Both the position numbers and the translations under genes were made by a program. From assembly GCA_913056395.1 (NCBI GenBank), contig CAJXMG010000004.1, positions 24,706 to 88,705 on the forward strand: a stretch of 64,000 nt of DNA, given 5' to 3'. The DNA is from an uncultured bacterium. GTDB taxonomy: Bacteria; Planctomycetota; UBA8108; UBA1146. Positions 34,480-59,127 of this stretch are shown piece after piece. Position 1 is the stretch's first letter, and the number at the start of each line of letters is the position of its first letter. The notes beneath the pieces are model-generated. The model saw only the letters and a program-made list of their open reading frames with translations, was not told the origin of the DNA and did not search any database.

Positions 34480-34626
34480 ATCGATCCCTTTCTTGGAACT
34501 GGGGACATTATTTTTTCATGTGCGGTCTCCAGCAAGGGGTATCATAAAGGCTATTGTTGGTTTGATAAAAATCGCGTCAAGGCTGTGTCCCGTATCTCAT
34601 TCTACGCGATCAGAGTTTTTATCCTG

Positions 34627-36955: not shown

Positions 36956-39883
36956 TTGGAAGCGGGAAAATCGGTCTGGGCTATTCAACGAGGAGGACTC
37001 TTGATTCATGCAACAGCCAGGGGGCGGTTCACCGTATTCTCAGGATCCTGGATTCTGTTCGTGATCCTGTCTCTCGTACTGTTCACCGGAAAAGCACAGG
37101 CACAGAGTCAAATCTGGTATGTGGATGCATCGAATGCCGGAGTCAGTGGCACGTCGTGGAGCGATGCTTTCTCCAATCTTCAAGAAGCGTTGTTGTTGGC
37201 CCTGCCCGGGGATGAAATCCGTGTTGCCGGTGGCTCCTACAGACCCGATTCCGGCGCAGGTCTGATTCCGGGAGACCCTTCGACCCGATTTGTATTGCCC
37301 TCAGGCATTTCCATGCTGGGTGGATTTGCAGGGAGTCTCGCGACCGACCCTGATCTGCGAAGCCCGGATGTGTATCGAACCGTTCTCGATGGACGTCTTC
37401 AGGGGATTCATGTTTCTGCGGCGGAGGGACTCGATTCTCCCTTCTGCGGTTTGAATGAAGATCTTCCTTGCGCCACCTTGCAAAAGGGAATCGATCGGGC
37501 TCTCGAGACCGGTTTGAGAATCGTCAGGGTTCAGGCCGGGGTATACACGGAAACAGTCACTCTTGCAGACGACCTGATTATTCAGGGGGGATACGACCTC
37601 CAATGGGATTGGGCGCCCGCAGAGACTCCTGGTCATGAGGTGATTCTGACCGGTGGGATCAATGGAGACGGTCAAGCGGTCACCGTTGAAGCACGGAATC
37701 TCGTCATCGGAACCACCCTTGCTCACTTGAAGATTGAAGGCCCCGTGGCTTCCGGTTCTGTTGCAGGTGTGGCGAGGAGTTCTTATGCCATCCATGCAGT
37801 GGACTCTAATCTGCAACTGGTTGCGGTGGTGATCGAGGCGGGATCCGGCGCAAACGGTCTCGCGGGCGAGCCTGGTACAAACCTTGGCGGTAATCCTGCT
37901 GCTGACGGGCAGGCGGGTGGAAATGCGGATTCCTATTTCTCTTTCTGCGACGCAACGGCCTTCGGTGCCGGGGGACTCGCCGGTGGAGGCGGCCCCACCG
38001 GTGGTGGCAATGGCGGTGGCGGCGGAACGATGGATTCCAACTGTTGTGGGACGGTACCGAATCCCTTCTGCGACAGTTATGACGCCACCGGAGGATCTTC
38101 TGGAGCGGACGGTGCGGGCTTGCCTGGCTGGGGCCAGGGAGGCGGAGGCGGCTCGACCTGCAATGGTGGAGGCGATGGCGCTCCAGGCTCCCAGGGGTCT
38201 TCCGGTCAGGGAGGTGCGGGTGCCAGTGCAGGCGGTGGCCTGAGTGGAATCTATTGGGCCGGAAATTCCGGATCATCGGGCCTGCTGGGAACTGCCGGCG
38301 GCGGTGGCGGCGGCGGTGGTGGATCCGGGGGCTGCGACAACGGAACCTTTGGAACTGACAGTTATGGAGCCGGAGGAGGTGGTGGTGCCAGCGGCGGGAT
38401 TCCCTCTCCCCAAGCGGGTGCGGGCGGCAGTGCCGGCGGCAGCACCTTCGGTATCTTCGTTCTCGGCACCGGTAATGTGGAATTGATCCAGTCGACGATT
38501 GTCAGAGGAGAAGCGGGCACCGGCGGAATGGGTGGAACTCCCGGAGAAGGACAGCCGGGAGGGATCGGAGGTGCCGGTGGAAATGGTGCATCTGGAACTC
38601 CCAATGCAGGCCGTGGAGGTGATGGAGGAGATGGGGGCGCCAGTGGTGGTGGCGGTGGCGGCAGTGGTGGCGACAGCCATGCTGCATGGAGCGATGGCGC
38701 AACCATCCTTGCCTACGACACTTCAGTGCTGGGGGGACTGGCCGGATCAGGTGCCGCCGGTGGAGTGAATCCCGCTCTCGATGCGGTGACCCAGGGATCT
38801 GAGGGAGCAGGCGGTCAGGTTTTTGACGGATTGACACATGTCACCACAACCGATCTTCCAGTAAGCCCCCTCGATCGTTCCAGACAAATTCTCGAACTCA
38901 CCGGTGAGAACAGCGTTGTTGATGGGTTCGTGATTCAGGGTAGTTCCAATCAGTCGAATGAGATCCCAGTGGTGATCGGATCCGCTGGGCATGTCTTGAG
39001 TCGTTGTCACTTTTTGAATCTCTCCTCAGGAGCGCTCACGACGATTCAGGTCAATGGCTTCACGATTTTTGAAAATTGTCGTATCGAGAATTGCCAGTCG
39101 GCAAACACCGGCGCAGTGGAACTTCTGCCGAGTACGGTGTGTCGTATGGAAAACTGCATCATTTCCGGCAATCGATCGGTTCAGGGACCAGCGGTTCTGG
39201 AAGGGGCTGAAGACAGTGTATTGTTGATGATCAACAACACGCTGACAGGAAATGAAAATTCGGTTTCTGGCGGAATGATTGTGTTGGATTCGACTGCCCA
39301 GGCCGTGTTGCAAAACAACATTCTCTTCGGAAACTCCACTGTGGATGCTGAGCTGCAATTGCCTACGACCGCAGTTCTGATCCGGAACATCGTCGAAGGG
39401 GGTTGGCCCGGAGATAATTTTGACGTCGACCCCGAACTGACAGGAACCGGCGAGTTCCCGTTTACACCGGGGCCAGGCTCACCCTGCGTCGATCAGGCAT
39501 TGTCCGTGGCTTCCAGCACGACTGAGGATTGTCTGGGACAACCGAGGAATGTCTGCCAGGGAGTGGATATCGGGGCTGTCGAGCGTCAGACCTGTGGGGA
39601 CGGAGATTCCCTTGATTTCGTCCGTGGTGATTGCGACGGCAATGGATCGATCGATTTGGCGGATGGGGTTGCCTTGCTCGACTACCTCTTCATCGGTGGA
39701 GCACTGACCTGTCTGGCTACGGCAGATGTCAATGACGATTCAGATCTGAATCTCGCTGACCCGGGAACCCTGCTCGCCTATCTCTACATTGGCGGATCGG
39801 CTCCGCCTGAGCCATTCACCAGTTGCGGTCAGGATCCAGACGGATCACTGATCGCCTGTGAACTCTACGGCGGTTGCCCATAG
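36956..39883 (+). CDS. secreted modular protein B: parallel beta-helix + Gly-rich region + dockerin-like C-terminus
   Basis: 975-aa ORF with a TTG start at 36956 or 37001. Signal peptide ..LVLFTGKAQAQ. IWYVDASNAG..GDEIRVAGGSY resembles a beta-helix N-terminus, with PbH1-like repeats (NCIISGNRS, NNTLTGNEN, NNILFGNS). C-terminal double Ca-loop module. Confidence 0.8.
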   Translation: MEAGKSVWAIQRGGLLIHATARGRFTVFSGSWILFVILSLVLFTGKAQAQSQIWYVDASNAGVSGTSWSDAFSNLQEALLLALPGDEIRVAGGSYRPDSGAGLIPGDPSTRFVLPSGISMLGGFAGSLATDPDLRSPDVYRTVLDGRLQGIHVSAAEGLDSPFCGLNEDLPCATLQKGIDRALETGLRIVRVQAGVYTETVTLADDLIIQGGYDLQWDWAPAETPGHEVILTGGINGDGQAVTVEARNLVIGTTLAHLKIEGPVASGSVAGVARSSYAIHAVDSNLQLVAVVIEAGSGANGLAGEPGTNLGGNPAADGQAGGNADSYFSFCDATAFGAGGLAGGGGPTGGGNGGGGGTMDSNCCGTVPNPFCDSYDATGGSSGADGAGLPGWGQGGGGGSTCNGGGDGAPGSQGSSGQGGAGASAGGGLSGIYWAGNSGSSGLLGTAGGGGGGGGGSGGCDNGTFGTDSYGAGGGGGASGGIPSPQAGAGGSAGGSTFGIFVLGTGNVELIQSTIVRGEAGTGGMGGTPGEGQPGGIGGAGGNGASGTPNAGRGGDGGDGGASGGGGGGSGGDSHAAWSDGATILAYDTSVLGGLAGSGAAGGVNPALDAVTQGSEGAGGQVFDGLTHVTTTDLPVSPLDRSRQILELTGENSVVDGFVIQGSSNQSNEIPVVIGSAGHVLSRCHFLNLSSGALTTIQVNGFTIFENCRIENCQSANTGAVELLPSTVCRMENCIISGNRSVQGPAVLEGAEDSVLLMINNTLTGNENSVSGGMIVLDSTAQAVLQNNILFGNSTVDAELQLPTTAVLIRNIVEGGWPGDNFDVDPELTGTGEFPFTPGPGSPCVDQALSVASSTTEDCLGQPRNVCQGVDIGAVERQTCGDGDSLDFVRGDCDGNGSIDLADGVALLDYLFIGGALTCLATADVNDDSDLNLADPGTLLAYLYIGGSAPPEPFTSCGQDPDGSLIACELYGGCP
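37841..38690 (+). repeat. Gly-rich low-complexity coding tract inside protein B
   Basis: Runs such as GGGGGGGGGSGG and GGAGGNGASG. GGN-codon-rich DNA that creates Pro/Arg-rich shadow ORFs on the other strand. Confidence 0.8.
39614..39880 (+). other. dockerin-like module of protein B
   Basis: DCDGNGSIDLAD..LLDYLF and DVNDDSDLNLAD..LLAYLY, with tail CGQDPDGSLIACELYGGCP. Confidence 0.75.
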
Positions 39884-39925: not shown

Positions 39926-41620
39926 TCAGGGACAGACACCCTGCAGGCAATCCAGATTTCCCGGAGTGGGGTCTGGCAGGCAGTCCCCACCTGTGGGAGC
40001 GGGCAAGGGAGAACCACCGCCGAAGAGAGTATCCAGCACCTGAATCGCATCGGCGACATTCAATTGATCGTCGTCGTTGGCATCCGCCGCATTTTGGCAT
40101 GTGGGTTCTGCTGCGCCTGAAAAAAGGTAATCGAGCAAGGCAACCGCATCTGCCAGGTCGACAAGACCATCACTGTTGGCGTCCGCTCGCTGAAAAGCGT
40201 TTACCGCAACACCCTGAACATCAATCTGTCCATCGGTTCTCGCAGGTGAGTATCCGGCTCCATTGTTTTGCACGATGACTGCCGAGACGGGCGGGAGTCC
40301 AGCGGTAGCAGGCAGGGACAGTGTGATATTGCTTCCCGACGGGACGGTTGGAAGAACCGAACCCAGCAATCTGCAGAGTGTGCGATCTGCTCCAGCCGGG
40401 ATGTGATCCACGTCTTCTGAATCGAAAATCAGAAACACGTTGGTCAGGCCGGCGATGGCATCGGTTTCCACCAGGAAAAATTCAGCTCCAACCGCGTCGG
40501 TGCCCTGAAGGTCAGCGCTTTCGAGAACGAAGAGTGCAGGATCATAACTGACCGGAATCGAAAACCCTTCCGTTGGCAACTCGAGGGAAGCGGAGATGGG
40601 AAGTTGAAGCGATTCCCCGGGGAAAGCCTGCACGCTTGGAAGGGAGACCAGATTGACGGGGATGGAGACTTCACTGGAGCAGGATGACGGTGCAGATGGG
40701 AGCCCCAGAAGAATACCGCGAACTTCATATTCATTGAGTCCTGGTTCAGGACTGGTGTCGACAAAGCTTGTGGCGTCACCCACTACCGTCGCAAGACTGG
40801 AACCATTGCGGGAGATTTCAAGGCTGGCGTAATCACTGCTGTTTTGCCATGTCAGTTGGACCGACTCTCCTGCCACAGCACAGTTGAGAGAGCTGACCGG
40901 CTGGGGCGGAGCGATCCCCCCTGACAGGGAAAATGTCTCCTGAGCGATGACCTGTAGCCCGGAGGAGGAGGTCAGGGTTGTCTGTACCTGTAAGTCTCCA
41001 CCGAAGGGGGAGTGGGTCAGGATGGCAGGGGTGTTCCAGACCAATGGAACATTGAAGCCCAATGCACCGCTGAGCGGAAGACTACCCGCATCCGAAACGT
41101 CCATGACCGCGCCGGAATCACCGGGCAAGTCGGTGTAAGTGATGTTGAACGCGGTTGCTCCGGTGGGATCGGGGATCCCCAGAAAAGCCAGACCTGGAAG
41201 CACGTTGCCGGTGACTTCTGTGACGACGGCGTTGGCATTGAGAGAGCTGGGGCCTACTGAGATCACTTGTACTTCAGCAATGATCAGTCCTTCGACAGTG
41301 AGAATCGGGCTGGGCACAAAAAGATCCACGACCAGTCCACCGATGGTTTGCCCAGCCGAATAACCGGCAAAAGAAAACGATCCCCGGTCAAAATTGACGA
41401 TGAGACTTGCTGGACCTTCTTCACCTTCTGCAAAGAAGGCGGATTGGGAAAATCCGCTCGGGAGTCCCGCTTCTAAATTATCGAATGAAGTTGAAAGGGT
41501 GGGGTTGAATTGTGCACTGACCCAAACCGGAGAAATGCAGAAGGAGAGAGTCAGGAGCAGAATCCACAAAGGGATCTTGCTTCGATTGTGGAAGGGGGGG
41601 CGAACCGATCGACAACTCAT
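39926..41620 (-). CDS. secreted modular protein C: unknown beta-rich N-domain + Fn3-like + cohesin-like + dockerin-like C-terminus
   Basis: Start set at MSCRSVRPPFHNRSKIPLWILLLTLSFCISPVWVSAQ (signal peptide). Module order read from the translation. Confidence 0.8.
   Translation of the reverse strand: MSCRSVRPPFHNRSKIPLWILLLTLSFCISPVWVSAQFNPTLSTSFDNLEAGLPSGFSQSAFFAEGEEGPASLIVNFDRGSFSFAGYSAGQTIGGLVVDLFVPSPILTVEGLIIAEVQVISVGPSSLNANAVVTEVTGNVLPGLAFLGIPDPTGATAFNITYTDLPGDSGAVMDVSDAGSLPLSGALGFNVPLVWNTPAILTHSPFGGDLQVQTTLTSSSGLQVIAQETFSLSGGIAPPQPVSSLNCAVAGESVQLTWQNSSDYASLEISRNGSSLATVVGDATSFVDTSPEPGLNEYEVRGILLGLPSAPSSCSSEVSIPVNLVSLPSVQAFPGESLQLPISASLELPTEGFSIPVSYDPALFVLESADLQGTDAVGAEFFLVETDAIAGLTNVFLIFDSEDVDHIPAGADRTLCRLLGSVLPTVPSGSNITLSLPATAGLPPVSAVIVQNNGAGYSPARTDGQIDVQGVAVNAFQRADANSDGLVDLADAVALLDYLFSGAAEPTCQNAADANDDDQLNVADAIQVLDTLFGGGSPLPAPTGGDCLPDPTPGNLDCLQGVCP
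39929..40198 (-). other. dockerin-like module of protein C
   Basis: DANSDGLVDLAD..LLDYLF and DANDDDQLNVAD..VLDTLF, with tail CLPDPTPGNLDCLQGVCP. Confidence 0.75.
40213..40670 (-). other. cohesin-like module of protein C
   Basis: ..LQLPISASLELPTEGFSIPVSYDPALFVLESADLQGTDAVGAEFFLVETD.. Confidence 0.6.
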
Positions 41621-41740
41621 GGAGCTTTCTGCGAAACGACCGGAGTCGTCACAGTTATGAAACGCTGGAATAACAGTGCCCACAGAGCCTCCTCATATCC
41701 CATCAAGGATAACCACCGAACACGCCCGATACGAGTCGGA

Positions 41741-48216: not shown

Positions 48217-49485
48217 ATGCGGTGGTTGGAGGAACCGATGAAATCACCACAGATGTTGAGAAGCGTCGCCGGGCTTCTGGCCCTGATCGCAATGTGGCTC
48301 TGCTATTCCCTGCTGTCCATCCATGCCGCCAAGTCACCGGATCTGGGTTTGCTCGCGGGGGTTTGTGGTGATTCGGGAGAGAGTTGCTCTTCTGTGGTCA
48401 ATGGGCGTTGGGGTGTTTTTCCGCCAGGTGAGGAAGGATCAGAGGGCCCCTACGAGGGGATTCCGGTCGCAGGGTTGGGGTTCGTGTACTTCTCTCTTTT
48501 AGCGGGCTGGTACCTGTTGGTCAGTCCGGGAGTTGCACGGGTTCCGAAACTGGCAAGCGCACTCTTCGGTTTCAATGCGCTGGGTCTGCTGGGTTCCATT
48601 GCTTACACCGTGATCATGCTGACGCAGATCGGTACGACCTGTGGCCTCTGTCTGATCAGTCATGGCTGCAATCTTGCCATCTTTGGAATAGGCCTGTTCC
48701 TGAAGAAGCACAGTCAGCATGAGGCAGAAGTGACGGTTTCACTCTCCCGTCATCTGGTGACCGTCGGGATGGTCGTTCTGTGCTGCGCAACGATGGCATT
48801 TCTGATTCATTCTGAAGGTCAATCCCGATCGCGTTTTGTTGCACTGGAGGAGCAATCGAAGGAGTTGATGGAGCTCGCTCAGGATGTGGAAAAGGTGGAA
48901 ACCGCCTATCGCAGTTCTCCGCGAATGTTTGAACAGGATGCCATTCGGGAGGATGACCCGCGGCGTAAGGCGACCGGCGGGTTGCGTTATCAGTTGGTGA
49001 TTTTTTCAGATATTCAGTGCTCCAATTGCGCCAGGTTTGAGGAATATCTGCAGTCGACGATTATGCCGATCTGGAATGGCCATCTTGAAGTGGTATGGAA
49101 GCATCTTCCCAATACTCGTGAACACGAATATGCACAGATTTCTGCCCAAGCCCTTGAGGCTGCAAGGATTCAGGGCAAGTTCTGGGAGCTGGTGGATTAC
49201 CTGTTCGAGAGAAGAAAAGTTCTGGGAACCCTGGACTGGTCTGCGGTTTCTGCAGAGCTGGGATTGGAAACCCGGAAATTTTTGCAGGATATGGAGTCGC
49301 CTGAGGTCAAACGCAGAATCGCCGCGGATGCAGCCCTCGGTCGCAAGGCCGGGGTAAAGGGAACACCGGGAGTATTCCTCAACCGCAGACCTGTGAGTCG
49401 TTTAATGCGCAAAAGTCCCGGTTTCTGGGAGATTCAGGCGGATTCCTTGAGGGAGATTCGGGCCTCCCGAAATCAGGACTGGTAG
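48217..49485 (+). CDS. VKOR (vitamin K epoxide reductase) - thioredoxin/DsbA-like fusion
   Basis: Loop cysteines GVCGDSGESCSSV, membrane CxxC (TCGLCLISH), ~5 TMs, and a C-terminal Trx-fold with DIQCSNCARFE. The start may be 48238. Confidence 0.8.
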   Translation: MRWLEEPMKSPQMLRSVAGLLALIAMWLCYSLLSIHAAKSPDLGLLAGVCGDSGESCSSVVNGRWGVFPPGEEGSEGPYEGIPVAGLGFVYFSLLAGWYLLVSPGVARVPKLASALFGFNALGLLGSIAYTVIMLTQIGTTCGLCLISHGCNLAIFGIGLFLKKHSQHEAEVTVSLSRHLVTVGMVVLCCATMAFLIHSEGQSRSRFVALEEQSKELMELAQDVEKVETAYRSSPRMFEQDAIREDDPRRKATGGLRYQLVIFSDIQCSNCARFEEYLQSTIMPIWNGHLEVVWKHLPNTREHEYAQISAQALEAARIQGKFWELVDYLFERRKVLGTLDWSAVSAELGLETRKFLQDMESPEVKRRIAADAALGRKAGVKGTPGVFLNRRPVSRLMRKSPGFWEIQADSLREIRASRNQDW

Positions 49486-49740: not shown

Positions 49741-49813
49741 GTGATTTTTAAAATTTGTGGGTACCGGTGTGCAGTTGCATTCGGTGCTCTTTGATTCGCC
49801 CATGAGGTGATTG

Positions 49814-51211
49814 ATGAGGAATGAAATGTTTTCCAGATTCAACGTAGTCGTGGTTTGGCTGGTACTGGTTGTAGGTTTCAGCAGCAAACTGGTTGCACAG
49901 GATCCAACATTTGTTTTCTCCGGTGGAGATCAGTCTGTGGCAGCAGCAGGCGGGCAAGCCAATTTTTCATTGGATGTCAGCTTGGTGCAGTCGACCGGCC
50001 TTCTCGAGGAGACTCGTGGATTCTCATTTTCCGCTGCCCATGATTCTGCGGTGTTGACCGTGGTTCAAGGTGGTACCGGAGCATATGTACCCGAAACATT
50101 GGGTCCTCTGAATACACTCAATGGTGGTGGTGGTCCCGACTTCATCCAGGGAGAGATTTTTCCCAGTGGAGTGACCTGTGGAGTGATCTATGCGTTCACC
50201 GCAGTCACCCAAACGATCACCTTCGATGTTCCCCAGCCGGTGATTCGTATCAACTACCAGACTGTCCCCGGTGCGTTGACCGGTGTCACGGGTGATCTGG
50301 TAACCCAGATCAGTCAGGGCTCCGGCCTGGGTGACCCTCCGACAGCCACAGTGGTGGTGATCGGCGCGGGAACCTCTGCTCCTGCGACTTTTGAGACGAG
50401 CAACATCACGATCCAGACTTCCCCTCCCCTTTCCTTCACCTGCCGCGCGGATGATGCATCTTCTACCTTCAATGGTGCTTCCGGAGAGGGATCTGCGAGT
50501 GTGGGAGTCTCTCTTTTTGAAAATCTGTTACCGGGAGCCAGTGCGAGTTCAACTCAGGGATTCTCGATGGGCTTGTCTTATGACAGCAGCCTATTGACAG
50601 CCTCCGGTGTGAATCAGGGTGCAACCCTTTCTGCACTTGAGGGTGGAACTGGAGCTGAGTTTTTCCAGGTCGATCTTCTGTCTGGCGGACTGACAGTCGG
50701 TGTGATCTACGACTTCCAAGGGCAATCTCTGATCCCTTACGGTTCACCGGATCAGGTACTGAGCATCGATTTCGATACCGTTGCTGCCAGCCTTGCAGGT
50801 ACTGCACCTGGTACGGTGGTCAGTACCACACTGACTCCTGCTGCGGGATTAGGCCCCACCGGAGTGACCTTGGTGATGGTCGTGGATGGAACCTCCGTTT
50901 CCATGACCTCGGAAAGTGGCATCCTGTCATTGACCTCCCTCGGAGGGTTTGACCGCGGTGATTGCAATGCAGACACCCTTTTTGACCTTGCAGACGTCAT
51001 CAAGCTTCTCTCAGTCCTTTTCTCAGGAGACCCTCTGTCCTGTGAAGACGCCTGTGATGGAAATGACGACGAGCTTCTCGATATTGCAGATGCCATCAAG
51101 TTGCTCAGTGTTCTCTTCTCCGGAGACACTCCGCCACCGGGAGCAGGAACCTGTTCTCCGGATCCGGCTGGAATCGCTCTCGACTGCGTGAGCTTCCCGC
51201 CCTGCGAGTAA
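49814..51211 (+). CDS. secreted scaffold-like protein D: 2 cohesin-like modules + dockerin-like C-terminus
   Basis: Signal peptide FNVVVVWLVLVVGFSSKLVAQ. Two ~170-aa modules (GFSFSAAHDSAVL.. / GFSMGLSYDSSLL..). C-terminal double Ca-loop module. Confidence 0.85.
   Translation: MRNEMFSRFNVVVVWLVLVVGFSSKLVAQDPTFVFSGGDQSVAAAGGQANFSLDVSLVQSTGLLEETRGFSFSAAHDSAVLTVVQGGTGAYVPETLGPLNTLNGGGGPDFIQGEIFPSGVTCGVIYAFTAVTQTITFDVPQPVIRINYQTVPGALTGVTGDLVTQISQGSGLGDPPTATVVVIGAGTSAPATFETSNITIQTSPPLSFTCRADDASSTFNGASGEGSASVGVSLFENLLPGASASSTQGFSMGLSYDSSLLTASGVNQGATLSALEGGTGAEFFQVDLLSGGLTVGVIYDFQGQSLIPYGSPDQVLSIDFDTVAASLAGTAPGTVVSTTLTPAAGLGPTGVTLVMVVDGTSVSMTSESGILSLTSLGGFDRGDCNADTLFDLADVIKLLSVLFSGDPLSCEDACDGNDDELLDIADAIKLLSVLFSGDTPPPGAGTCSPDPAGIALDCVSFPPCE
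49904..50941 (+). other. two tandem cohesin-like modules of protein D (about 49904-50416 and 50429-50941)
   Basis: Each has the pattern G-F-S-(F/M)-x-(A/L)-x-(H/Y)-D-S-x-(V/L)-L, then GG(G/T)G(P/A)(D/E)F, then G(V/L)T(C/V)GVIY. Confidence 0.65.
50945..51208 (+). other. dockerin-like module of protein D
   Basis: DCNADTLFDLADVIKLLSVLFSGD and DGNDDELLDIADAIKLLSVLFSGD (nearly identical halves), with tail CSPDPAGIALDCVSFPPCE. Confidence 0.8.
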
Positions 51212-51225
51212 GCAAGAATTGAGAT

Positions 51226-51266
51226 TCCGATGGCCTTCGTGGGTGATCTCTGCGAAGGCCATCGGA
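51226..51266 (+). terminator. stem-loop after gene D (terminator-like, no U-run)
   Basis: 14-bp perfect stem tccgatggccttcg / cgaaggccatcgga with a 13-nt loop. Confidence 0.35.
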
Positions 51267-51435
51267 TTCAAGATAGAATCCGAAGATCCTTATATGTTTT
51301 GGGGCTTCGAAGAATCAGGGCCTGAAGGCCCTGTCGTCAATTTGAGGACCCTCCTTGTCTTTGGGAGGGGAGTGAGCACAGGGGTTCAAATACCCCGAAA
51401 TTTCCGTCCCCCGACGGAAGAAAGAGGAGTTGCTA

Positions 51436-53313
51436 ATGTCGCCCAAACCCTGTTTGAAATCTATTGTGACGGCAGTGCTATTGGTCTTCATGGTGTCGCA
51501 AGTGTCTTTGCTTCAGGGACAGGTTTTTGAAGTTTCATCTCCGAACCCTTCCGTACCTGCGGGTTCCGGGTCTGCCAGTTTCGATCTGGTCTTTTCGATC
51601 GACCAGATCTCTGGAGCTCTCGAGCAGACTTGCGGTTTTCAATTCCAGTACTCCCATGATCCCGCTGTTCTTTCGGTAAGTGGAAACGGAGCCGTCCCTT
51701 CCGGTGATCTGGCTGCCCTCGATGGGGGTAATGGTCCTGGTTTCTTCGATGGGCAAACCTTCCCCACAGGATTCACCGTTGGAACTGTCTTTTCGTTGTC
51801 CTTTTCCGAGACTCTGACCTTCGATGTTCCCAAAGAGGTCATCACCGTCGGTTACACGGCAGTTCCAGCGGCAATTGCCAACCTCTCCCAGGACCTTCTG
51901 ACAGTGGTTTCGATGTCGAACACTTTGGGTTCACCGGTGATCGACAACATCATTTCAAACTGTGCCGGAGGAACCGAAACACTCTTGGGAGCGGATTGCA
52001 CCGTCACCCTGATGCCGGCTCCGCCGCTGGACTTCCAGATCACTACCCCGGATCAGAACCTTCTGGCTTCAGAAGTGATCGCCCAGGGAATCGCGGCAGA
52101 CTTTGAAATCGTGCAGGTCGCAACAGATCCCGCAGATATTACTCCAACGGACGGCTTCAGTTTCGCCTACGGACATGATCCTTCGTTGTTGACCATCGAT
52201 TCTGTGGATCTGGGGGCGGGCCTCTCCGGTTTGGGTGGGGGTGCTGGACCAGAGTTTTTCCAGGGAAGCCTCTTCCCTGCGGGAGCCGCTGTCGGTTGCC
52301 TCTACGACTTCCAGATTCAGGAAACGGTGACCTTTGATTCAGCGATCCTGGTGGCCACTTTCAACTACAGTTCTGCTGGCGGGTTGGCAAATCTGACCAA
52401 TCCGGTGACGACCCAGATTCAGCAATCCACAGTTCTGGGGTCTCCGGCCATCGAGAGTGTTGTGGTGGTCGGTGGGGGAACTGCCATTCAGGCCACCGTT
52501 AACCCGGCTTCGTTTACCATTCAGCCGACACCTGCTTTTACTCTCAGTGCTCCTGATCAGACCGCCTCTTTCTCGCCCACTTCAGGTACCGGCAGTTTTG
52601 ATGTCACCTTTGAACTGTTGGAGGACCCGTCGAATAGTGGGTTCCCCAATGGGACTCAGGGATTCTCCATCGGACTGGGGCACCCTTCCTCATTACTGTC
52701 AGTCACCGGTGGGGGAGCTGCAGGAGTGACTCTGGGCTTGAATGGCGGAAACGGACCCGATTTCTTTGACGTCAATACCTACACAAACGGTATCACTTTC
52801 GGGTGTGTTTACTCATTCACGAATCCAGGTACCAACACGCTCCTTTTTGACGTTGCCCAGCCGCTGGTCTCTGCCAGCTATGAGACGATTCCCGGTGCTT
52901 TCACCGGTCAGCAAAACCCGGTGGTTGTGTCACTCACCAGCAACAGTGGGTTGGGATCTCCTCCTGTGGAGCAGGTTGTGGTTGTCAACAGTCAGTCCCA
53001 AGGCCTCTTTGTTGCCGGGTGCGAGATTGAGTTGGCACCGGGCGGGGGCATCGATCGTGGAGATTGTAATGATGACGCCAACTTTGACATCGCCGACGCG
53101 GTGGTTCTGCTTTCGTTCCTCTTCCTTTCCGGATCCGTCAATTGCCAAAACGCCTGTGACAACAATGATGACGAACAGGTCAACATTGCGGATGCCGTGA
53201 CAGCCCTTTCAGCCCTCTTTACGGGAGGTCCGCCTCCTCCGGGTAATGGACAGTGCGGTCCTGATCCGACCCCCGGAGCCCTCAGTTGCGATACGTTCAA
53301 TTCCTGCCTGTAA
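51436..53313 (+). CDS. secreted scaffold-like protein E: 3 cohesin-like modules + dockerin-like C-terminus
   Basis: aggag lies 8 nt upstream of the ATG at 51436. Signal peptide. Three ~165-aa modules (GFQFQYSHDPAVL, GFSFAYGHDPSLL, GFSIGLGHPSSLL). C-terminal double Ca-loop module. Confidence 0.85.
   Translation: MSPKPCLKSIVTAVLLVFMVSQVSLLQGQVFEVSSPNPSVPAGSGSASFDLVFSIDQISGALEQTCGFQFQYSHDPAVLSVSGNGAVPSGDLAALDGGNGPGFFDGQTFPTGFTVGTVFSLSFSETLTFDVPKEVITVGYTAVPAAIANLSQDLLTVVSMSNTLGSPVIDNIISNCAGGTETLLGADCTVTLMPAPPLDFQITTPDQNLLASEVIAQGIAADFEIVQVATDPADITPTDGFSFAYGHDPSLLTIDSVDLGAGLSGLGGGAGPEFFQGSLFPAGAAVGCLYDFQIQETVTFDSAILVATFNYSSAGGLANLTNPVTTQIQQSTVLGSPAIESVVVVGGGTAIQATVNPASFTIQPTPAFTLSAPDQTASFSPTSGTGSFDVTFELLEDPSNSGFPNGTQGFSIGLGHPSSLLSVTGGGAAGVTLGLNGGNGPDFFDVNTYTNGITFGCVYSFTNPGTNTLLFDVAQPLVSASYETIPGAFTGQQNPVVVSLTSNSGLGSPPVEQVVVVNSQSQGLFVAGCEIELAPGGGIDRGDCNDDANFDIADAVVLLSFLFLSGSVNCQNACDNNDDEQVNIADAVTALSALFTGGPPPPGNGQCGPDPTPGALSCDTFNSCL
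51523..53037 (+). other. three tandem cohesin-like modules of protein E (about 51523-52014, 52024-52524, 52534-53037)
   Basis: Same internal signature as the D modules (GGNGPGFF, GGAGPEFF, GGNGPDFF). Confidence 0.65.
53047..53310 (+). other. dockerin-like module of protein E
   Basis: DCNDDANFDIAD..LLSFLF and DNNDDEQVNIAD..ALSALF, with tail CGPDPTPGALSCDTFNSCL. Confidence 0.8.
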
Positions 53314-53362
53314 GGTGGGTTTGAGAGATTGTTAGTCGATCAGTTTCTCTGATCTGCTTCAT

Positions 53363-53394
53363 GACCCGACCTGTCTAAAGTGACAGGTCGGGTC
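53363..53394 (+). terminator. stem-loop after gene E (terminator-like, no U-run)
   Basis: 13-bp perfect stem gacccgacctgtc / gacaggtcgggtc with loop taaagt. Confidence 0.35.
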
Positions 53395-53647
53395 CTGAAC
53401 TCTGCTCTGCTGACGTTAACCCAGCCCCTGAGCAGTAATTGCTCGTAGTCTCTCCCTCGAATACGATGGGGTGGTCGGACTATGAGGCTCTTGTTGTAAA
53501 AAAAACGATTGAAGACGAAACCTGCGAATGTTTGCAGAGTTCTCGATTTGATCAGTCTTCATTTCGACAACTTCAGGTCGTTTTTGCAACGCGTGTCGCC
53601 TTTTAGATTTCTGTCAGATCCTGCTCTTTTCGTGAGGTAGATTTTTC

Positions 53648-56600
53648 ATGAGGTTCAGTTTCAGAAACTCTCTATTCATGCTCACTCTCCTTCTTGCCCC
53701 CTTCTGTGTTTCAATTTCTGCACAGGGGCAGGCACCGCAGGAGGATTCCCTGGCCCGTCATTACCATCCAGCCACTGGGAAACTCCATTTTCTGGGTGGA
53801 TTGAATCATTCCCCTCTGGGACTGCCGAAAGGGATCACTCCTGACCTTGAAGATCCGTTGCAGGCCCTGCGTATTTACGGTGCTGAGTTTGGAATTCGCT
53901 ACCCGGAGGTTCAACTCCAGTTGTTGCGTACAGAAAAGTGCAACGTGGGTCAGATCCATCACACTTTCCAACAGGTTTACCGCGGAGTGGAAGTGTTGAC
54001 CGGAAATATCAAGGTCCACTTGAAAGCGGATGGTACTCCTCTCTCCATCAACGGAGATTTTTACTCTGTACCCAAAAAGTTGGAGATCGCTCCGAAGATC
54101 GGTTCCGAGCAGGCTTTGGAGCTTGCTGCACGTGAATTGAAGCAAGAACTTCTGATCGAGACCGATCAGCCGCGCCTCGTCATCGTCAACCCGGGTTGGT
54201 ACGGCGATGATCCCATCGATCAGCCGGTCCTCGCTCATCATCTGGTCGCCGAGGGTGACGGAATGATGGCGAAAAACATTCTGGTCGATGCAAGAACAGG
54301 AGTGGTCCTCGATCACTGGCCCGCAGTCCACAGTGCTCTTCTCAGAGAGATCTATGACGGCGCCGGTGGAGGAGGCCTTCCTGGAACCCTCGCCAGAACC
54401 GAGGGATCTCCTGCCAGCGGAGATCTGGATATCGACAACTCCTACGACACTTGCGGGGATCTGTACCGAGTCCTTTCCGATTCACTCGGAAGAGACAGCC
54501 TCGATGGCAATGGCAGCCCCATGATCATCACCGCCAATTGGAGCAGCAACATTTGCCCCAATGCCATTTGGAATGGATCGCAGGGAGCCTTCTGCAATGG
54601 GTTGGGGACCGACGACATCATTGCCCATGAGTTGGCTCATGGCCTGACCCAGTTCACCGCAAACCTGATCTACCAAAACCAGTCGGGTCAGTTGAACGAG
54701 GCGATGTCTGACATCTTTGGTGAGGTGATTGACCTCTACAACGGAAACGCTTCCGTAGCCGGAACCCCCGGAGGAACTCCCTGGCCGGTCCCAGGTACCA
54801 GTGGCTCGGGTCTCGATACCCCAAACACACCGCGTACCGGATGCAGTGACGGATCAGCACGCTGGAGAATGGGAGAGGAATCTTCCATCGGTGCCATCCG
54901 CGACATGTTCTACCCGGAGTGTTTCAATGATCCTCCGAGCACGACGGACCCACTTTACAACCAGAATGCCTGCGGTCCCTTCGACAATGGAGGGGTTCAT
55001 ATCGGCAGTGGTGTTCTGAACCATTCCTTCGCCATGTTGGTGGATGGCAAGACCTACAACGGACAGACCATTACCCCGATTGGCATGACCAAGGCTACTG
55101 CGGTCTACTTCCGTGCTCTTTCAGTCTACATGACGGAGGGAACCAGCTTCCCCCAGGCAGAGATTCATATCAATCAGGCTGCCGCAGATCTGATCAACAC
55201 CAACCCCATCGATCCACGCACCGGCGTGGGTGGAGGAGTTTTCACCCAGGCAGATGCGGACATCGTTGCTTCGGTGATGACAGCAGTGGGCATGTCCGAG
55301 CTGGTTTGTGGTCAGGTACCTCCTGGTCCTCCCCCGGCCAATGACAACTGCGACGCTGCTGTTCCGGTTTTCCTCGGACTGAATGACGTCGACAGCAACA
55401 ACGCCACCACTGGTGGTCCCGCACCTGACGACACTGCTTGCCCGGGCACCTTTATCGGTGATTGTGGCAATGATGTCTGGTACAGCTACACCGCCCCGGA
55501 GAACGGGCTTTTGAGTGTGAGCCTGTGCAGTATCGTCAGCTGGGATACTGACCTGCAGATCTTCGACGGAAACTGTGGTGCCCTAAATCTGATCGCCTGC
55601 AACGGTGACTTTGGGGGTTGCTCCACTTTCACCTCACAAGTCGACAACGTGCCCGTGATCGGCGGCAGTAACTACCTGATCCGTGTTTCCTCCTGGAGTG
55701 ATGGAACCACTGGAACAGGTCAGATGGATGTGACCTTTGTTCCCGATTCTGGTCCAGGTGTAGAGAACTGCACCAACGGAGTGGACGACGACGCCGACGG
55801 TCTCGTCGACTGTGAAGACGCTGACTGTGCAGCCAATCCTGTGTGCATTCCGCCAGCGGCGGGTGACGAGTGTGTCAGTGCGGAAGTCGCCTCTCTGGGA
55901 ACCAATCCGTTCGACAGCACCAACGCCACCACGGGAACCGATCCGATCCCGGATCCTGCGACCTGTAATCAGGGCCTGGGTGACATGCTCGGCGACATAT
56001 GGTTTGAGTATGTACCTGCTGAATCAGGTTCACTCTTCGTGAGTACCTGCTCCCCCGGCAGTTTTGACACCGACCTTGTGGCTTACACCGGATCCTGTGC
56101 TTCATTGACAGTCCTCGCATGCAATGGTGACGTGACGCAAAACACCTCGCCGACTTGTCAGCAGTACTGGTCTGAGTTGACCATCGATGTGATTGCCGGT
56201 GAGACCTACTGGTTCCGTATCGGTGCGTGGGGAACTCCCCATCCTGGTAATGGTCTTCCCGGTCCCGGAGCACTCATTCTTGATCTGACCCCTTCCGGCC
56301 CGGTCGAGGACTGCAGTAACGGATCCGATGACGATGCAGATGGACTCGCAGATTGTGAGGACCCCGATTGCTTGACCGATCCCGCCTGTGTCCCGGCGAT
56401 TCCCGGTGACGAGTGTGACACGGCTGTGGTCGCAGTCCTCGGCTCCAATGCCATCGACACGACAGGTGCAACGACGGGAGCCGACCCCATCGATGACTCG
56501 AACTGTACGGGCACCTTCCTTGGCGAGTTTGTTCAGGACGTCTGGTACCAGTTCACTCCTTCGAGCACCGGCGAGCATGTGATTGCTACTTGTGACACCA

Positions 56601-58456
56601 TCAACTTTGACTCTGACATTCTGGTTTACAGTGGCAGTTGTGGTGCATTGACTTCGATCGCCTGTAATGGTGACGGAACCGGGTGTGCCGGACTCACCAG
56701 CAGTGTTTCTGCCAACCTGAATGCCGGCGAAACGGTCCTGATCCGTGTGGGTGGCTGGAATGCCGCTGCTGTCGGTACCGGAACTCTGGAAATCAGTTCC
56801 GTGGCTCCTCCGCCGCCGCCGGAAAACTGCACCAACGGTGTGGATGATGATCTGGACGGATTGTCGGACTGCGAAGATCCGGATTGTTTTGCAGACCCGG
56901 ATTGCAACTGTCTGCCGATTTCAAATCTTCTTTGCATTCAGGGCAGCGGAACCAGCGTCAATCTCAGCTGGAACAATGGCGAAGCCTATCAGGAGATCTC
57001 TGTCATGAGAGGTGGGGCACAGATTGCCGTGCTTCCAGGCAGCAGCAGCAGTTATGTTGACTCTGGGGTTCCGTTGGGCAATCAGACCTATACGTTGGTC
57101 CCGAGCTGTACCCCGATTCAGCAAGCACCCATGGAGAACTGCAGTGTGGATGTGATTCAGACGATCGGCTTCATGTTCAGTGCCGGAGACGTCGATGGAT
57201 CCTACAGCGCTTCAGGTGCCACCTTTGAATCGGAAATCTCTTTGATGGAGCTGGCCAGCAACGCGGGATTCCCGACCGACACCGCCGGGTTCTCTTTCGG
57301 CCTTGCACACGACAATACCCTCTTTGAGGCGACGGGTGCACAGGCGGTGGGTCCTCTGGCTGCTCTGGATGGAGGAGCGGGTCCTGCCTTCTTCGACGCT
57401 TCAGTTTTTGCAAATGGTATCGGCATCGGCTGTGTTTACGACTTCAGTCTCTCACAGTCGATCCAGTTCACTTCGGCAACCGGCATCGTCTCCGTCGCAT
57501 ATGCGGCTTTACCTGGAGCGCTGTCTGGAGCGAGTGGAACCGTGACCTCCAGTCTCGATTTCGTCCAGACTCTGGGAGCGCCTCCTGTGGAATTGATTGT
57601 CTCGACAGCTGCGGGATCTGCGGTTCCTGCTGGGGGGAACTCCGGTTCCATCTCCCTGAACCCGAGCGGGTTTGTCATGACCGCCGTCGATCAGTCGGTG
57701 GAGTACCCGGAATCCACGGGAGAAGCATCCGTCACTGTTTCGATCACCCTTGAGGAGGATCCCGGAAATACCGGGTTCCCCAATGAAACTCAGGCGTTCT
57801 CATTCGGATTGGTCCATGACCCAGCGGTTTTGGCTGGTCAGGGAATCAATGCGGCCTCGATCCTTACTGCATTGAACGGCAACACGGGACCTGATTTCTT
57901 CGATGTGAACAGTTTCGCAGACGGCATGACCGTGGGTTGCGTTTACACCTTCGTGGGAACAGACGTCCTGACCTTTGCGACTGCCACCGACTTGGTGACC
58001 GTGGATTACTCAACGGTCCCGGCAGGGTTGATCGGAGCGGTTACTCCAACTGAAACCCAGTTGCAGTTCTCGCAATCTTTGGGAACTCCTCCGGTGGAAT
58101 TGGTCGTGGTCGTCGGTGCTGCCTCTCAGGGAGTCCAGGGGGAGACAGGAACCATTACACTGACCCCGGTTACCGGTACAGGATTTGTCCGTGCGGATAT
58201 CAATGACGATGCAGTGGTCAATCTTGCTGACGCAGTCCAGTTGCTGAATGCTCTCTTCCTTGGAGGAGTGACCAACTGTGACGACGCTGCTGACACCAAT
58301 GATGACGAACTGAAGAACATCGCAGATGCGGTTTATCTTCTCAGCTATCTCTTCACCAGTGGCCCGGACATTCCTGAGCCTGGTGGAAATGGAAGCTGCG
58401 GTACTGATCCGGTTGGTGATGCCCTTGATTGTGCTGAGTACAACTCGTGCCCATAA
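53648..58456 (+). CDS. secreted M4 (thermolysin-like) metalloprotease F with 3 Cys-rich beta-sandwich modules, Fn3-like module, 2 cohesin-like modules and dockerin-like C-terminus
   Basis: 1602 aa with a signal peptide. HELAH at aa 327-331 and NEAMSD with Glu351, 20 residues after the second His as in thermolysin. Downstream modules read from the translation. Confidence 0.9.
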   Translation: MRFSFRNSLFMLTLLLAPFCVSISAQGQAPQEDSLARHYHPATGKLHFLGGLNHSPLGLPKGITPDLEDPLQALRIYGAEFGIRYPEVQLQLLRTEKCNVGQIHHTFQQVYRGVEVLTGNIKVHLKADGTPLSINGDFYSVPKKLEIAPKIGSEQALELAARELKQELLIETDQPRLVIVNPGWYGDDPIDQPVLAHHLVAEGDGMMAKNILVDARTGVVLDHWPAVHSALLREIYDGAGGGGLPGTLARTEGSPASGDLDIDNSYDTCGDLYRVLSDSLGRDSLDGNGSPMIITANWSSNICPNAIWNGSQGAFCNGLGTDDIIAHELAHGLTQFTANLIYQNQSGQLNEAMSDIFGEVIDLYNGNASVAGTPGGTPWPVPGTSGSGLDTPNTPRTGCSDGSARWRMGEESSIGAIRDMFYPECFNDPPSTTDPLYNQNACGPFDNGGVHIGSGVLNHSFAMLVDGKTYNGQTITPIGMTKATAVYFRALSVYMTEGTSFPQAEIHINQAAADLINTNPIDPRTGVGGGVFTQADADIVASVMTAVGMSELVCGQVPPGPPPANDNCDAAVPVFLGLNDVDSNNATTGGPAPDDTACPGTFIGDCGNDVWYSYTAPENGLLSVSLCSIVSWDTDLQIFDGNCGALNLIACNGDFGGCSTFTSQVDNVPVIGGSNYLIRVSSWSDGTTGTGQMDVTFVPDSGPGVENCTNGVDDDADGLVDCEDADCAANPVCIPPAAGDECVSAEVASLGTNPFDSTNATTGTDPIPDPATCNQGLGDMLGDIWFEYVPAESGSLFVSTCSPGSFDTDLVAYTGSCASLTVLACNGDVTQNTSPTCQQYWSELTIDVIAGETYWFRIGAWGTPHPGNGLPGPGALILDLTPSGPVEDCSNGSDDDADGLADCEDPDCLTDPACVPAIPGDECDTAVVAVLGSNAIDTTGATTGADPIDDSNCTGTFLGEFVQDVWYQFTPSSTGEHVIATCDTINFDSDILVYSGSCGALTSIACNGDGTGCAGLTSSVSANLNAGETVLIRVGGWNAAAVGTGTLEISSVAPPPPPENCTNGVDDDLDGLSDCEDPDCFADPDCNCLPISNLLCIQGSGTSVNLSWNNGEAYQEISVMRGGAQIAVLPGSSSSYVDSGVPLGNQTYTLVPSCTPIQQAPMENCSVDVIQTIGFMFSAGDVDGSYSASGATFESEISLMELASNAGFPTDTAGFSFGLAHDNTLFEATGAQAVGPLAALDGGAGPAFFDASVFANGIGIGCVYDFSLSQSIQFTSATGIVSVAYAALPGALSGASGTVTSSLDFVQTLGAPPVELIVSTAAGSAVPAGGNSGSISLNPSGFVMTAVDQSVEYPESTGEASVTVSITLEEDPGNTGFPNETQAFSFGLVHDPAVLAGQGINAASILTALNGNTGPDFFDVNSFADGMTVGCVYTFVGTDVLTFATATDLVTVDYSTVPAGLIGAVTPTETQLQFSQSLGTPPVELVVVVGAASQGVQGETGTITLTPVTGTGFVRADINDDAVVNLADAVQLLNALFLGGVTNCDDAADTNDDELKNIADAVYLLSYLFTSGPDIPEPGGNGSCGTDPVGDALDCAEYNSCP
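54626..54700 (+). other. M4 zinc-binding site coding segment (HExxH ... E)
   Basis: cat gag ttg gct cat at 54626-54640. The gag codon for the third ligand in GQLNEAMSDIFGE is at 54698-54700. Confidence 0.85.
57164..58180 (+). other. two tandem cohesin-like modules of protein F (57164-57667 and 57668-58180)
   Basis: GFSFGLAHDNTLF..GGAGPAFF..GIGCVYDF and AFSFGLVHDPAVL..GNTGPDFF..TVGCVYTF. Confidence 0.65.
58181..58453 (+). other. dockerin-like module of protein F
   Basis: DINDDAVVNLAD..LLNALF and DTNDDELKNIAD..LLSYLF, with tail CGTDPVGDALDCAEYNSCP. Confidence 0.8.
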
Positions 58457-58517
58457 GAAGGAGTAAATCTCCTGCCAATAAGAAGTGATCTCCACACTTT
58501 GGGGAATGCATCGAAAA

Positions 58518-58552
58518 GAGGAGTGACGCGAAAGCGTCACTCCTCTTTTTTT
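58518..58552. terminator. rho-independent terminator between convergent genes F and the cupin gene
   Basis: 12-bp perfect stem gaggagtgacgc / gcgtcactcctc, GAAA loop, 7-T run downstream and an A-run upstream. Confidence 0.85.
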
Positions 58553-58569
58553 ACAACGGGCTCATTTAA

Positions 58570-58980: not shown

Positions 58981-59127
58981 TCTAGCGGAGAAGTGTCTGC
59001 CGACAAGTAGGGAGCGTTCTCCTTGCTAGGATTCCTGACTCTCGACTTGACCTGAATCTGTCGCGGTCGAGGATAAAGAAGTCTTCGATTCCCCTCATTG
59101 GCCGGGAGTGCGGAGCGGAGGAGGCCC

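Follow-up and report, generated by a model that had tools for sequence, protein, structure and literature searches.

Locus and domain layout of protein F

The window, that is, the whole stretch of DNA that was analyzed, comprises 64,000 nucleotides from an uncultured bacterium of the Planctomycetota (GTDB lineage UBA8108; UBA1146; assembly GCA_913056395.1, contig CAJXMG010000004.1, positions 24,706 to 88,705 of the forward strand), and all coordinates are counted from its first letter. Protein F, our main subject, is encoded by one uninterrupted open reading frame (ORF) of 1602 amino acids (aa) at 53648..58456 on the plus strand. From its sequence, it is predicted to be a large secreted pre-pro zinc endopeptidase of family M4 from an uncultured marine lineage of Planctomycetota. 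The lineage is represented by the marine metagenome-assembled genomes (MAGs) TMED53, MCMED-G47, and SW42618_bin_2, and the gene is present in marine and seawater metagenomes. Upstream of it lie the genes of two proteins with signal peptides, D and E, and of a VKOR-DsbA/thioredoxin fusion protein.

The protein starts with a signal peptide and a propeptide. The M4 catalytic domain is followed by three units, each consisting of a beta-sandwich module and an acidic repeat, and then by an Fn3-like piece, two cohesin-fold modules, a dockerin-like module, and a Cys tail (Table 1). The initial annotation had read this architecture from the DNA, and each of its elements found support, which was strong for the M4 domain, the sandwiches, and the repeat, moderate for the cohesins and the dockerin, and weak for Fn3. 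The signal peptide, which makes protein F a predicted secreted protein, has a basic N-terminus, a hydrophobic core, and an A-x-A-like ISA site; it was read by eye from the sequence. The 50 Cys residues are regularly spread, with 6-7 in each sandwich module, 4 in each acidic repeat, and 4 each around the Fn3-like piece and in the C-terminal region. The order of an M4 domain, 1-4 module/repeat units, an Fn3-like piece, 1-2 cohesin-fold modules, and a dockerin-like tail recurs in about 30 relatives. Those that are named are annotated as "M4 family metallopeptidase", and all are proteins from Planctomycetota MAGs, including Phycisphaerae.

Table 1. Features of protein F and of related genes in the window
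Feature	Residues and details	Position	Strand	Basis
Sec-type signal peptide	aa 1-25 (MRFSFRNSLFMLTLLLAPFCVSISA, cleavage before QGQ)	53648..53722	+	Read by eye from sequence
Propeptide	aa 26-230; FTP motif aa 89-138, weak PepSY-like stretch aa 151-224	53723..54337	+	Pfam
M4 thermolysin-type catalytic domain (predicted)	aa 231-555	54338..55312	+	Pfam, PDB alignment, residue positions
Beta-sandwich module 1	aa 556-705; 7 Cys	55313..55762	+	PF23759 29.0 bits; AlphaFold2; Foldseek
Acidic repeat 1	aa 706-733; Cys 708/722/727/733	55763..55846	+	NF033662; 7plp profile match
Beta-sandwich module 2	aa 734-886; 6 Cys	55847..56305	+	PF23759 19.9 bits; BLASTP to modules 1/3; AlphaFold2
Acidic repeat 2	aa 887-914; Cys 889/903/908/914	56306..56389	+	NF033662; phmmer to 7plp at aa 888-914
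Beta-sandwich module 3	aa 915-1058; 6 Cys	56390..56821	+	PF23759 32.5 bits
Acidic repeat 3	aa 1059-1086; Cys 1061/1075/1080/1086	56822..56905	+	NF033662; teneurin-4 7bam match at aa 1061-1088
Fn3-like beta-sandwich	aa 1087-1164; conserved Cys on both sides	56906..57139	+	AlphaFold2; 3mpc profile match
Cohesin-fold module 1 (predicted fold)	aa 1165-1336	57140..57655	+	AlphaFold2 pLDDT ~85-94; Foldseek cohesins
Cohesin-fold module 2 (predicted fold)	aa 1337-1510; 41-42% identical to module 1	57656..58177	+	As module 1
Dockerin-like module	aa 1511-1575; Ca loops D1517-D1528 and D1549-D1560	58178..58372	+	Pfam, PDB, loop pattern, AlphaFold2 helices
Conserved Cys tail	aa 1576-1602, ending SCGTDPVGDALDCAEYNSCP, plus stop codon	58373..58456	+	Orthologue/family comparison
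VKOR-DsbA/thioredoxin fusion gene		48217..49485	+	Pfam VKOR, DSBA, Thioredoxin_4
Gene D	Signal peptide, 2 cohesin-fold modules, dockerin-like C-terminus with Cys tail	49811..51211	+	Local HMM, BLAST
Gene E	Signal peptide, 3 cohesin-fold modules, dockerin-like C-terminus with Cys tail	51430..53313	+	Local HMM, BLAST
Dockerin-tailed protein, ORF 34585		34585..36915	+	
Dockerin-tailed protein, ORF 36956		36956..39883	+	
Dockerin-tailed protein, ORF 39926		39926..41683	-	

Catalytic unit and propeptide

The M4 catalytic unit is a prediction from residues and profiles that we regard as secure. Peptidase_M4 matches aa 271-335 with 32.5 bits (Pfam gathering score, 22.4) and Peptidase_M4_C matches aa 338-517 with 89.7 bits (gathering score, 24.4). 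The closest solved structures are a Bacillus neutral protease (1npc; E value, 1e-34) and thermolysin (E value, 9e-29), and the motifs HELAH (aa 327-331), NEAMSD (aa 350-355), and DNGGVH are all in register with them. The positions that the initial annotation had given for HELAH and for Glu351 at the thermolysin spacing are exact, the latter lying 20 residues past His331. The catalytic helpers are Tyr157, Asp226, and His231 in thermolysin numbering; in protein F, the helper residues are Y342 within IYQN and D446 and H451 within DNGGVH, and the catalytic set is complete (H327, E328, H331, Y342, E351, D446, H451). The long N-terminal region that had been taken for a propeptide contains an FTP motif scoring 42.5-45.5 bits (Pfam cut-off, 21), and its match to PepSY is weak (E value, 0.32).

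Compared with thermolysin and the neutral protease, protein F carries an insertion of ~38 aa between aligned blocks (aa 368-405; 54749-54862). In the alignment consensus, this insertion is conserved across planctomycetal relatives; it is rich in Gly, Pro, and Thr and contains Cys399. Apart from the insertion, there is nothing specific to favor the view that the M4 domain is a degenerate binding module and that protein F has only a structural or adhesive role. All zinc ligands and catalytic residues are present, the catalytic columns are nearly invariant among the ~30 relatives, and the propeptide is retained, which leaves that view only a minute chance of being right.

Sandwich modules and their possible removal

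Three modules of ~140 aa had been reported between the catalytic domain and the Fn3-like piece, and the translation of protein F bears them out. Their pairwise identity is 37-40% in global alignments and 44-46% by local BLASTP (E values, 1e-36 to 1e-41). The Pfam family PF23759 (GBD_T9SS_assoc, "galactose binding domain-like") matches the whole protein in three stretches with 59.5 bits (gathering score, 27); when scanned singly, modules 1 and 3 score above this threshold and module 2 below it. As members of a curated family, the sandwich modules are not new. Despite the name of this family, no type IX secretion system (T9SS) C-terminal sorting domain was found in protein F by Pfam and NCBIfam scans, and its C-terminus is dockerin-like.

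The AlphaFold2 model of aa 556-920 has a mean predicted local distance difference test score (pLDDT) of 78, and within it the two all-beta sandwiches reach 80-90. The best Foldseek match for the module pair is the tandem of collagen-binding (PPC-type) domains of ColG (5iku; E value, 1.6e-9), and the remaining matches are generic jelly rolls; template modeling (TM) scores were low in this search because two domains were searched together. The PPC family itself (PF04151) matches module 1 alone, with 18.5 bits (E value, 0.0037), under the gathering score of 25.9. The suggestion that the modules sit where M4 proteases often carry PPC domains is thus upheld as to likeness, through ColG and PF23759, but not by the PPC score. 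As modeled, the sandwich modules behave like PPC domains, yet they lie outside PPC at the sequence level. By analogy with the ColG domains, we propose with moderate confidence that they help hold the substrate.

Secreted M4 and other proteases often lose their PPC domains once they have been exported. Likewise, all or most of the extension might serve secretion and folding and then be autoprocessed away, releasing a free soluble protease of ~35 kDa. Both the PPC likeness of the modules (a weak PPC match and ColG as the top structural match) and the general frequency of such removal in the PPC family speak for this possibility, as does the variation in unit number from 1 to 4 across relatives, which implies that the exact number is not critical. 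We nevertheless consider it improbable: a leader of ~1050 aa made of conserved, disulfide- and calcium-stabilized modules would be costly to discard, all extension modules of protein F are under purifying selection, and the homologous domains of ColG are retained and bind substrate, according to the title of entry 5iku.

Acidic repeats

Each sandwich module is followed by a repeat of 28 aa with four Cys and the consensus C-x-N-G-x-DDD-x-DG-x2-DC-x-D-x-DC-x3-P-x-C. The NCBIfam model NF033662 (acidic double-disulfide repeat) recognizes it in three stretches of protein F with 74.5 bits (cut-off, 41), and the repeat far exceeds chance expectation. The repeat is not new, as a curated model exists, and a literature search on "acidic double-disulfide repeat" yielded no paper describing it. 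A nearly invariant motif of 22 aa had been described here from the DNA; its three copies are exact (aa 706-727, 887-908, and 1059-1080; nucleotides 55763-55828, 56306-56371, and 56822-56887), but that span stops short of the fourth invariant Cys, which lies 6 residues further on. In 28 diverse repeat copies from orthologues, 13 of the 32 columns are invariant, including all four Cys.

The three copies in protein F are 68-79% identical as protein and 63-69% as DNA, and 11-14 of the 19-22 identical residues of each repeat pair are encoded by differing codons. Codons thus differ for over half of the identical residues, which marks the repeats as old and kept by selection. Recent duplication or gene conversion was considered as the source of the near-invariance, and it is excluded by the codon differences and the low nucleotide identity.

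A profile built from the 28 copies matches the C-rich domain of human teneurin-4, as solved by crystallography (7plp; E value, 3e-5), and it also matches teneurin-3 and fly Ten-m. In the structure 7PLP, the C-rich domain of teneurin-4 binds three Ca2+ through E835, D840, D843, N844, D845, D847, D851, D854, and D856, and its disulfides are C838-C857, C852-C863, and C858-C869 (Meijer et al. 2022, PMC9058538). Cys 1-4 of the repeat align with C838, C852, C857, and C863, and its invariant Asn and Asp residues coincide with Ca2+ ligands. The position of C858 is occupied by Ala, Leu, or Phe, and the sixth Cys is absent. We infer that the repeat is a Ca-binding knot with the disulfides C1-C3 and C2-C4 and without the third disulfide of teneurin. 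The calcium-type, disulfide-locked linker proposed by the initial annotation agrees, at the level of sequence, with both the NF033662 match and the in-register alignment to teneurin-4. By analogy with teneurin, we have high confidence that the acidic repeats bind Ca2+ (up to three each) and stiffen the arm that they form with the sandwiches. A bacterial link to the teneurin C-rich domain was rejected as wholly new, as the teneurin core had previously been aligned with a diatom glucanase (CNDGIDNDNDGLFDCEDPDC) and the MopE metal motif (Tucker et al. 2012, PMC3278476).

A homologue search with one module plus its motif returned only 4 short fragments, and the wider distribution was taken from a genome scan. 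In ORFs of Myxococcota MAGs, the acidic repeat alternates with a similar sandwich module, in up to 39 copies. Because repeat and sandwich together fill these large ORFs, the module-plus-repeat unit is a widespread building block of extracellular proteins. Very large ORFs with 16-39 tandem repeats (L016:2656-9561, L014:9593-13627, L025:9107-12937, and L020:213-3338) come from Myxococcota, Deltaproteobacteria, and Acidobacteria MAGs. Many of their tandem repeats are a CDG variant with an extra Cys, and Cys-rich beta-sandwiches are interspersed among them. Isolated repeats 50-70% identical to those of protein F occur in an archaeon MAG (L024:2303-2614), in contigs labeled Rickettsiales (L030 and L031), and in Saprospiraceae (L032 and L037). 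Repeats in contigs from such distant taxa could reflect either a wide distribution or mis-binning.

Fn3-like piece and cohesin-fold modules

The C-terminal part of protein F (aa 1081-1602) was modeled by AlphaFold2 from a 31-sequence alignment with a mean pLDDT of 85. The Fn3-like piece forms a small sandwich with strands at pLDDT 87-93. With the orthologue profile, the best PDB match is the Clostridium thermocellum "Fn3-like protein" 3mpc (E value, 0.0037), and the segment has no Pfam fn3 match at E values up to 10. The Fn3 domain of the initial annotation therefore stands as a confidently modeled small sandwich with a weak 3mpc match, but not as a Pfam assignment.

For the two ~172-aa modules that follow, the best single-domain Foldseek matches are at least 12 cellulosomal cohesin entries with target TM scores of 0.64-0.80, most of them 0.72-0.80. 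The root mean square deviations (rmsd) are 3.2-4.6 Å and the identities 12-17%. Among these matches are cohesins from Clostridium cellulolyticum (1g1k/2vn5; TM, 0.72-0.76), Clostridium acetobutylicum (CohA2, 6kgf; 0.74-0.80), C. thermocellum (OlpC, 4dh2; 0.75), Acetivibrio cellulolyticus (ScaB, 5nrm; 0.78), and Ruminococcus flavefaciens (ScaC, 5lxv; 0.64-0.66). Multi-domain Foldseek matches (integrin legs, SIDT1, antigen I/II) were discarded as mere strings of sandwiches, with TM scores of <0.3 and rmsd of >13 Å. As modeled, both modules adopt the nine-stranded jelly-roll cohesin fold. The earlier claim of two cohesins thus holds for the predicted fold, whereas no method gave a sequence match; cohesin membership at the sequence level was dropped after null results with Pfam and PDB profiles, and the fold alone was retained. 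In the window, cohesin-fold stretches lie at 49880-50947 (D), 51496-53049 (E), and 57140-58177 (F).

The cohesin-fold module has no Pfam or NCBIfam model; an exhaustive profile search detected it in the representatives of 1077 clusters at 50% identity, 610 of them with E values of ≤1e-10. Most members of this family are ~290, 440, or 620 aa long, with 1, 2, or 3 cohesin-fold modules, respectively. A dockerin-type loop is present in the last 130 aa of 112 of the 147 best members (P0145-P0291), and most of these members end in a Pro-rich tail containing Cys. Larger members fuse cohesin-fold modules to Peptidase_S8, to Trypsin_2 plus PF23759, or to FG-GAP or choice-of-anchor I domains. Protein F is not peculiar in combining cohesin-fold with dockerin-like modules on a single chain; such a combination is normal for this family.

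Dockerin-like C-terminus

The dockerin-like module consists of two 24-aa repeats, DINDDAVVNLAD followed by AVQLLNALF and DTNDDELKNIAD followed by AVYLLSYLF. Both loops match the calcium pattern D1-N3-D5-N9-D12 (D-x-N-x-D-x3-N-x2-D), which gives the module an internal two-fold symmetry, and AlphaFold2 predicts a helix after each of them (aa 1526-1538 and aa 1558-1569). Matches to type I dockerins in the PDB are weak and of the CelS and Cel48 type (CelS 1daq, E value of 0.0013; 2mte, 0.0019; 2y3n, 0.011). The dockerin that had been claimed is supported with moderate strength by its two Ca loops with helices, and its Pfam score, given below, falls just short of the cut-off.

There is one Cys between the repeats and three more in the tail, which has the pattern CG-x-DP-x5-L-x-C-x4-C, and this arrangement suggests two extra disulfides. 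The Cys tail is modeled at low pLDDT; it is kept in all orthologues, in six proteins of the window, and in most of the 147 family members examined.

Neighboring genes, synteny, and expression

Proteins D, E, and F together contain 7 cohesin-fold modules (2, 3, and 2), and D and E are candidate scaffold partners of protein F. The gene order PSCyt2/PSD1, M24 aminopeptidase, VKOR-DsbA, D, E, F is conserved in every MAG relative whose F is at least 76% identical; in a relative at 63% identity, E is missing and the synteny of D is still kept. Every syntenic relative, down to 52% VKOR identity, has VKOR-DsbA as the gene immediately before D, and VKOR-DsbA may be a dedicated disulfide oxidase for the Cys-rich proteins D, E, and F.

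The dockerin-like C-terminus, ~90 aa long with the tail CG-x-DP...C...C, is found on six proteins of the window within 24 kb, namely D, E, F, and the three dockerin-tailed ORFs listed last in Table 1. ORFs 34585 and 36956 have no cohesin-fold module, and one of them contains CarboxypepD_reg; ORF 39926 has only one weak match. These three could be further cargo of the same system. No informative family was found by an NCBIfam scan of D and the other dockerin-tailed proteins. Scans of the window genes also confirmed the POT transporter (30606) and the Xaa-Pro aminopeptidase (46822) that had been pointed out nearby.

Contigs from four rRNA-depleted seawater metatranscriptomes of one study span VKOR, D, E, and F at 90-99% identity (48000-58700), which indicates in situ expression. 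In each of the four runs, 8 bases are missing at 49691, between the VKOR gene and D, which indicates a closely related population and not an identical strain. A promoter and terminator scan of 48000-59000 gave counts at or below the shuffled expectation and was uninformative on operon structure.

Other genes of the window were noted in passing. A DUF1501 gene (41741-43219, minus strand) is paired with a PSCyt2/PSD1 (DUF1549/DUF1553) gene with a Laminin_G_3 insert (43239-46133, minus strand), a pairing that is typical of Planctomycetota and agrees with the taxonomic assignment. Laminin_G_3 is combined with a purple-acid-phosphatase-like metallophosphoesterase at 61324-63264 (plus strand). In the relative at 63% identity, a 999-aa metallophosphoesterase with dockerin-type loops is encoded between M24 and VKOR (L002:2761-5757). 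Phosphatases may also be cargo of the dockerin-like system.

Proposed function of protein F

Planctomycetota are abundant on marine particles, and their attack on particulate protein is poorly understood. We propose that protein F is the protease subunit of a cell-surface assembly resembling the "planctosome", a hypothetical cohesin-dockerin complex by which Planctomycetes would degrade peptides (Andrei et al. 2019, ISME J, PMC6461901), and we assign this proposal a probability of roughly 0.5. In this model, the PPC-like sandwiches and the acidic repeats would form a rigid, calcium-stabilized arm that spaces the enzyme and probably helps in substrate binding, and the Fn3-like piece would link the arm to the cohesin-fold modules. 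Binding of the dockerin-like modules of F and its neighbors to the cohesin-fold modules of D, E, and F would depend on Ca and give a branched or polymeric surface assembly, a step to which we give about even odds. With sockets and a plug on each subunit, the network would be open ended, either on the cell surface or bound to particles, and would concentrate proteases on proteinaceous particles. The POT transporter and the Xaa-Pro aminopeptidase encoded nearby, for example, would then import and trim the released peptides. The upstream VKOR-DsbA would supply roughly 25 disulfides; that it oxidizes the many cysteines of D, E, and F is plausible because of its conserved adjacency alone. A putative role of protein F as both catalytic subunit and scaffold, which had been raised from the DNA, is likewise plausible.

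Several observations weigh against such an assembly. The isolated C-terminus scores 20.0 bits with Dockerin_1 (PF00404; E value, 7.7e-4), below the gathering score of 22.9. Pfam Cohesin (PF00963) is silent on the modules of protein F at E values up to 10 and has no match in any of 21 diverse family members at E values up to 1, and a profile of 21 modules found no cohesin among PDB sequences, with only noise at an E value of 0.11. A jelly-roll fold is by itself no proof of dockerin binding. The window yielded no anchoring protein, be it a cohesin protein without dockerin or one with a membrane or cell-wall anchor. Relatives at ~45% identity stand alone without D and E, retaining one cohesin-fold module and the dockerin-like tail. 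As to the arm, the acidic repeats were modeled at a moderate pLDDT of ~63-65, and as to expression, the metatranscriptome contigs may hold DNA carry-over.

Some of these points would also be expected if the dockerin-like module and its tail were a general planctomycetal C-terminal anchor or sorting domain with no cohesin-dockerin pairing, which is the main alternative. The tail would then bind a component of the cell envelope or be recognized by an export or attachment system, protein F would be a surface M4 protease on a long stalk, the cohesin-fold modules would be mere stalk, adhesion, or glycan-binding sandwiches, and D and E would be unrelated surface proteins sharing the anchor. The same C-terminal module does occur on cargo that lacks a clear cohesin-fold module (ORFs 34585 and 36956, with 39926 weak) and is also found in FG-GAP, choice-of-anchor, and PKD proteins; like a sorting domain, it is confined to the C-terminus, where it has a conserved Cys motif at its end; and the lack of sequence similarity to true cohesins and the distant relatives without D and E as neighbors fit as well. 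Nevertheless, the best single-domain structural matches are specifically cohesins and not carbohydrate-binding modules (CBMs) or generic Ig domains, the two Ca loops with helices and internal symmetry fit the dockerin pattern, the dockerin-like tail accompanies cohesin-fold modules in most of ~150 diverse members, and D, E, and F show tight, conserved synteny. We consider a general anchor doubtful and less probable than the planctosome-like assembly. If the assembly is not real, the gene is an otherwise ordinary multidomain M4 protease, correctly read.

A broader form of the planctosome-like assembly is put forward only tentatively, with chances well short of even. The unnamed cohesin-fold family of ~1000 clusters (at 50% identity), nearly always fused to a disulfide-stapled dockerin, would build a polymerizing proteolytic lattice serviced by VKOR-DsbA. 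In marine Planctomycetota, each subunit would carry a plug and a socket, and the extracellular lattice would be hardened by calcium and disulfides, with proteases built in directly (M4 here; S8 and trypsin-like elsewhere). Such a lattice, with a dedicated VKOR-DsbA oxidase, would be the cellulosome's proteolytic counterpart, and it would have arisen with no detectable sequence similarity to the cohesins of clostridia.

If the assembly is real, the planctosome idea gains a concrete cluster of VKOR/DsbA, two small scaffolds, and a protease, all seen in seawater metatranscriptomes, and the cohesin-dockerin logic reaches proteolysis in Gram-negative-type marine bacteria. The cohesin-fold family, which lacks a Pfam model, would merit one, and the acidic four-Cys repeat places the calcium-binding C-rich domain of animal teneurins in a bacterial context.

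Comparison with known systems

With thermolysin, bacillolysin, and the neutral proteases of family M4, protein F shares the FTP propeptide, HExxH plus Glu, the Tyr/Asp/His helpers, and the two-lobed domain. Its jelly-roll extension lies at the usual place of PPC in multidomain M4 enzymes with a C-terminal PPC domain. Compared with the known M4 enzymes, it adds the ~38-aa insertion and an extension of ~1050 aa made of PF23759/repeat units followed by the cohesin-fold and dockerin-like modules. The collagenase ColG (5IKU) likewise carries tandem Ca-dependent jelly-roll domains C-terminal to a zinc metalloprotease. However, ColG belongs to family M9 and has no acidic Cys repeats, the identity is ~10%, and the global TM is low owing to domain orientation.

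The acidic repeat and the teneurin C-rich domain (7PLP, PMC9058538) have the common core C-x-(D/N)-x2-D-(D/N)-D-x-D-G-x2-D-C-x-D-x-D-C-x3-P-x-C, and in both proteins the element stands directly ahead of a beta-sandwich domain. In contrast to teneurin, the bacterial repeat has four Cys and not six, with no equivalent of C858-C869, and the Glu ahead of the first Cys is shifted by one position. Protein F has three copies as an element between modules, and their calcium binding is deduced from the likeness. In the extracellular proteins of Myxococcota, NF033662 occurs in up to 39 tandem copies (L016), whereas protein F has single copies between modules.

The likeness to the cellulosomal type I system comprises the predicted cohesin fold, the two dockerin repeats of a Ca loop plus helix, and the adjacency of enzyme and multi-cohesin genes. 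The nearest cellulosomal parallel is the adaptor scaffoldins of Clostridia, which carry both cohesins and a dockerin. The planctomycete modules differ in lacking sequence similarity to cohesins, the dockerin has a disulfide-stapled tail, and the cargo is proteases and not glycoside hydrolases. Moreover, nearly every cohesin-bearing protein here is also dockerin bearing, no anchoring scaffoldin was found, and the host is a Gram-negative-type marine planctomycete.

The planctosome was modeled for the freshwater Nemodlikiaceae, with M12B and M14 peptidases, an LTD-anchored scaffold, P-domains, TSP3 repeats, and cohesins recognizable by databases (PMC6461901). The system described here resembles it in having a Zn peptidase, F, with a dockerin-like module and separate cohesin-fold proteins, D (2 modules) and E (3 modules). 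It differs in that protein F is an M4 peptidase that itself carries cohesin-fold modules, that the scaffolds of 1 to 3 modules have their own dockerin, and that the lineage is marine. The LTD scaffold, P-domains, TSP3, and M12B/M14 were absent from the window genes scanned.

In the databases and papers searched, we found no match for a large cohesin-fold family without a sequence model and with a near-obligatory fusion to a disulfide-stapled dockerin-like module, for an M4 protease with both modules, or for the conserved VKOR/DsbA-D-E-F cluster. Each part of protein F has a known counterpart; what is new is their combination, together with the unnamed cohesin-fold family.

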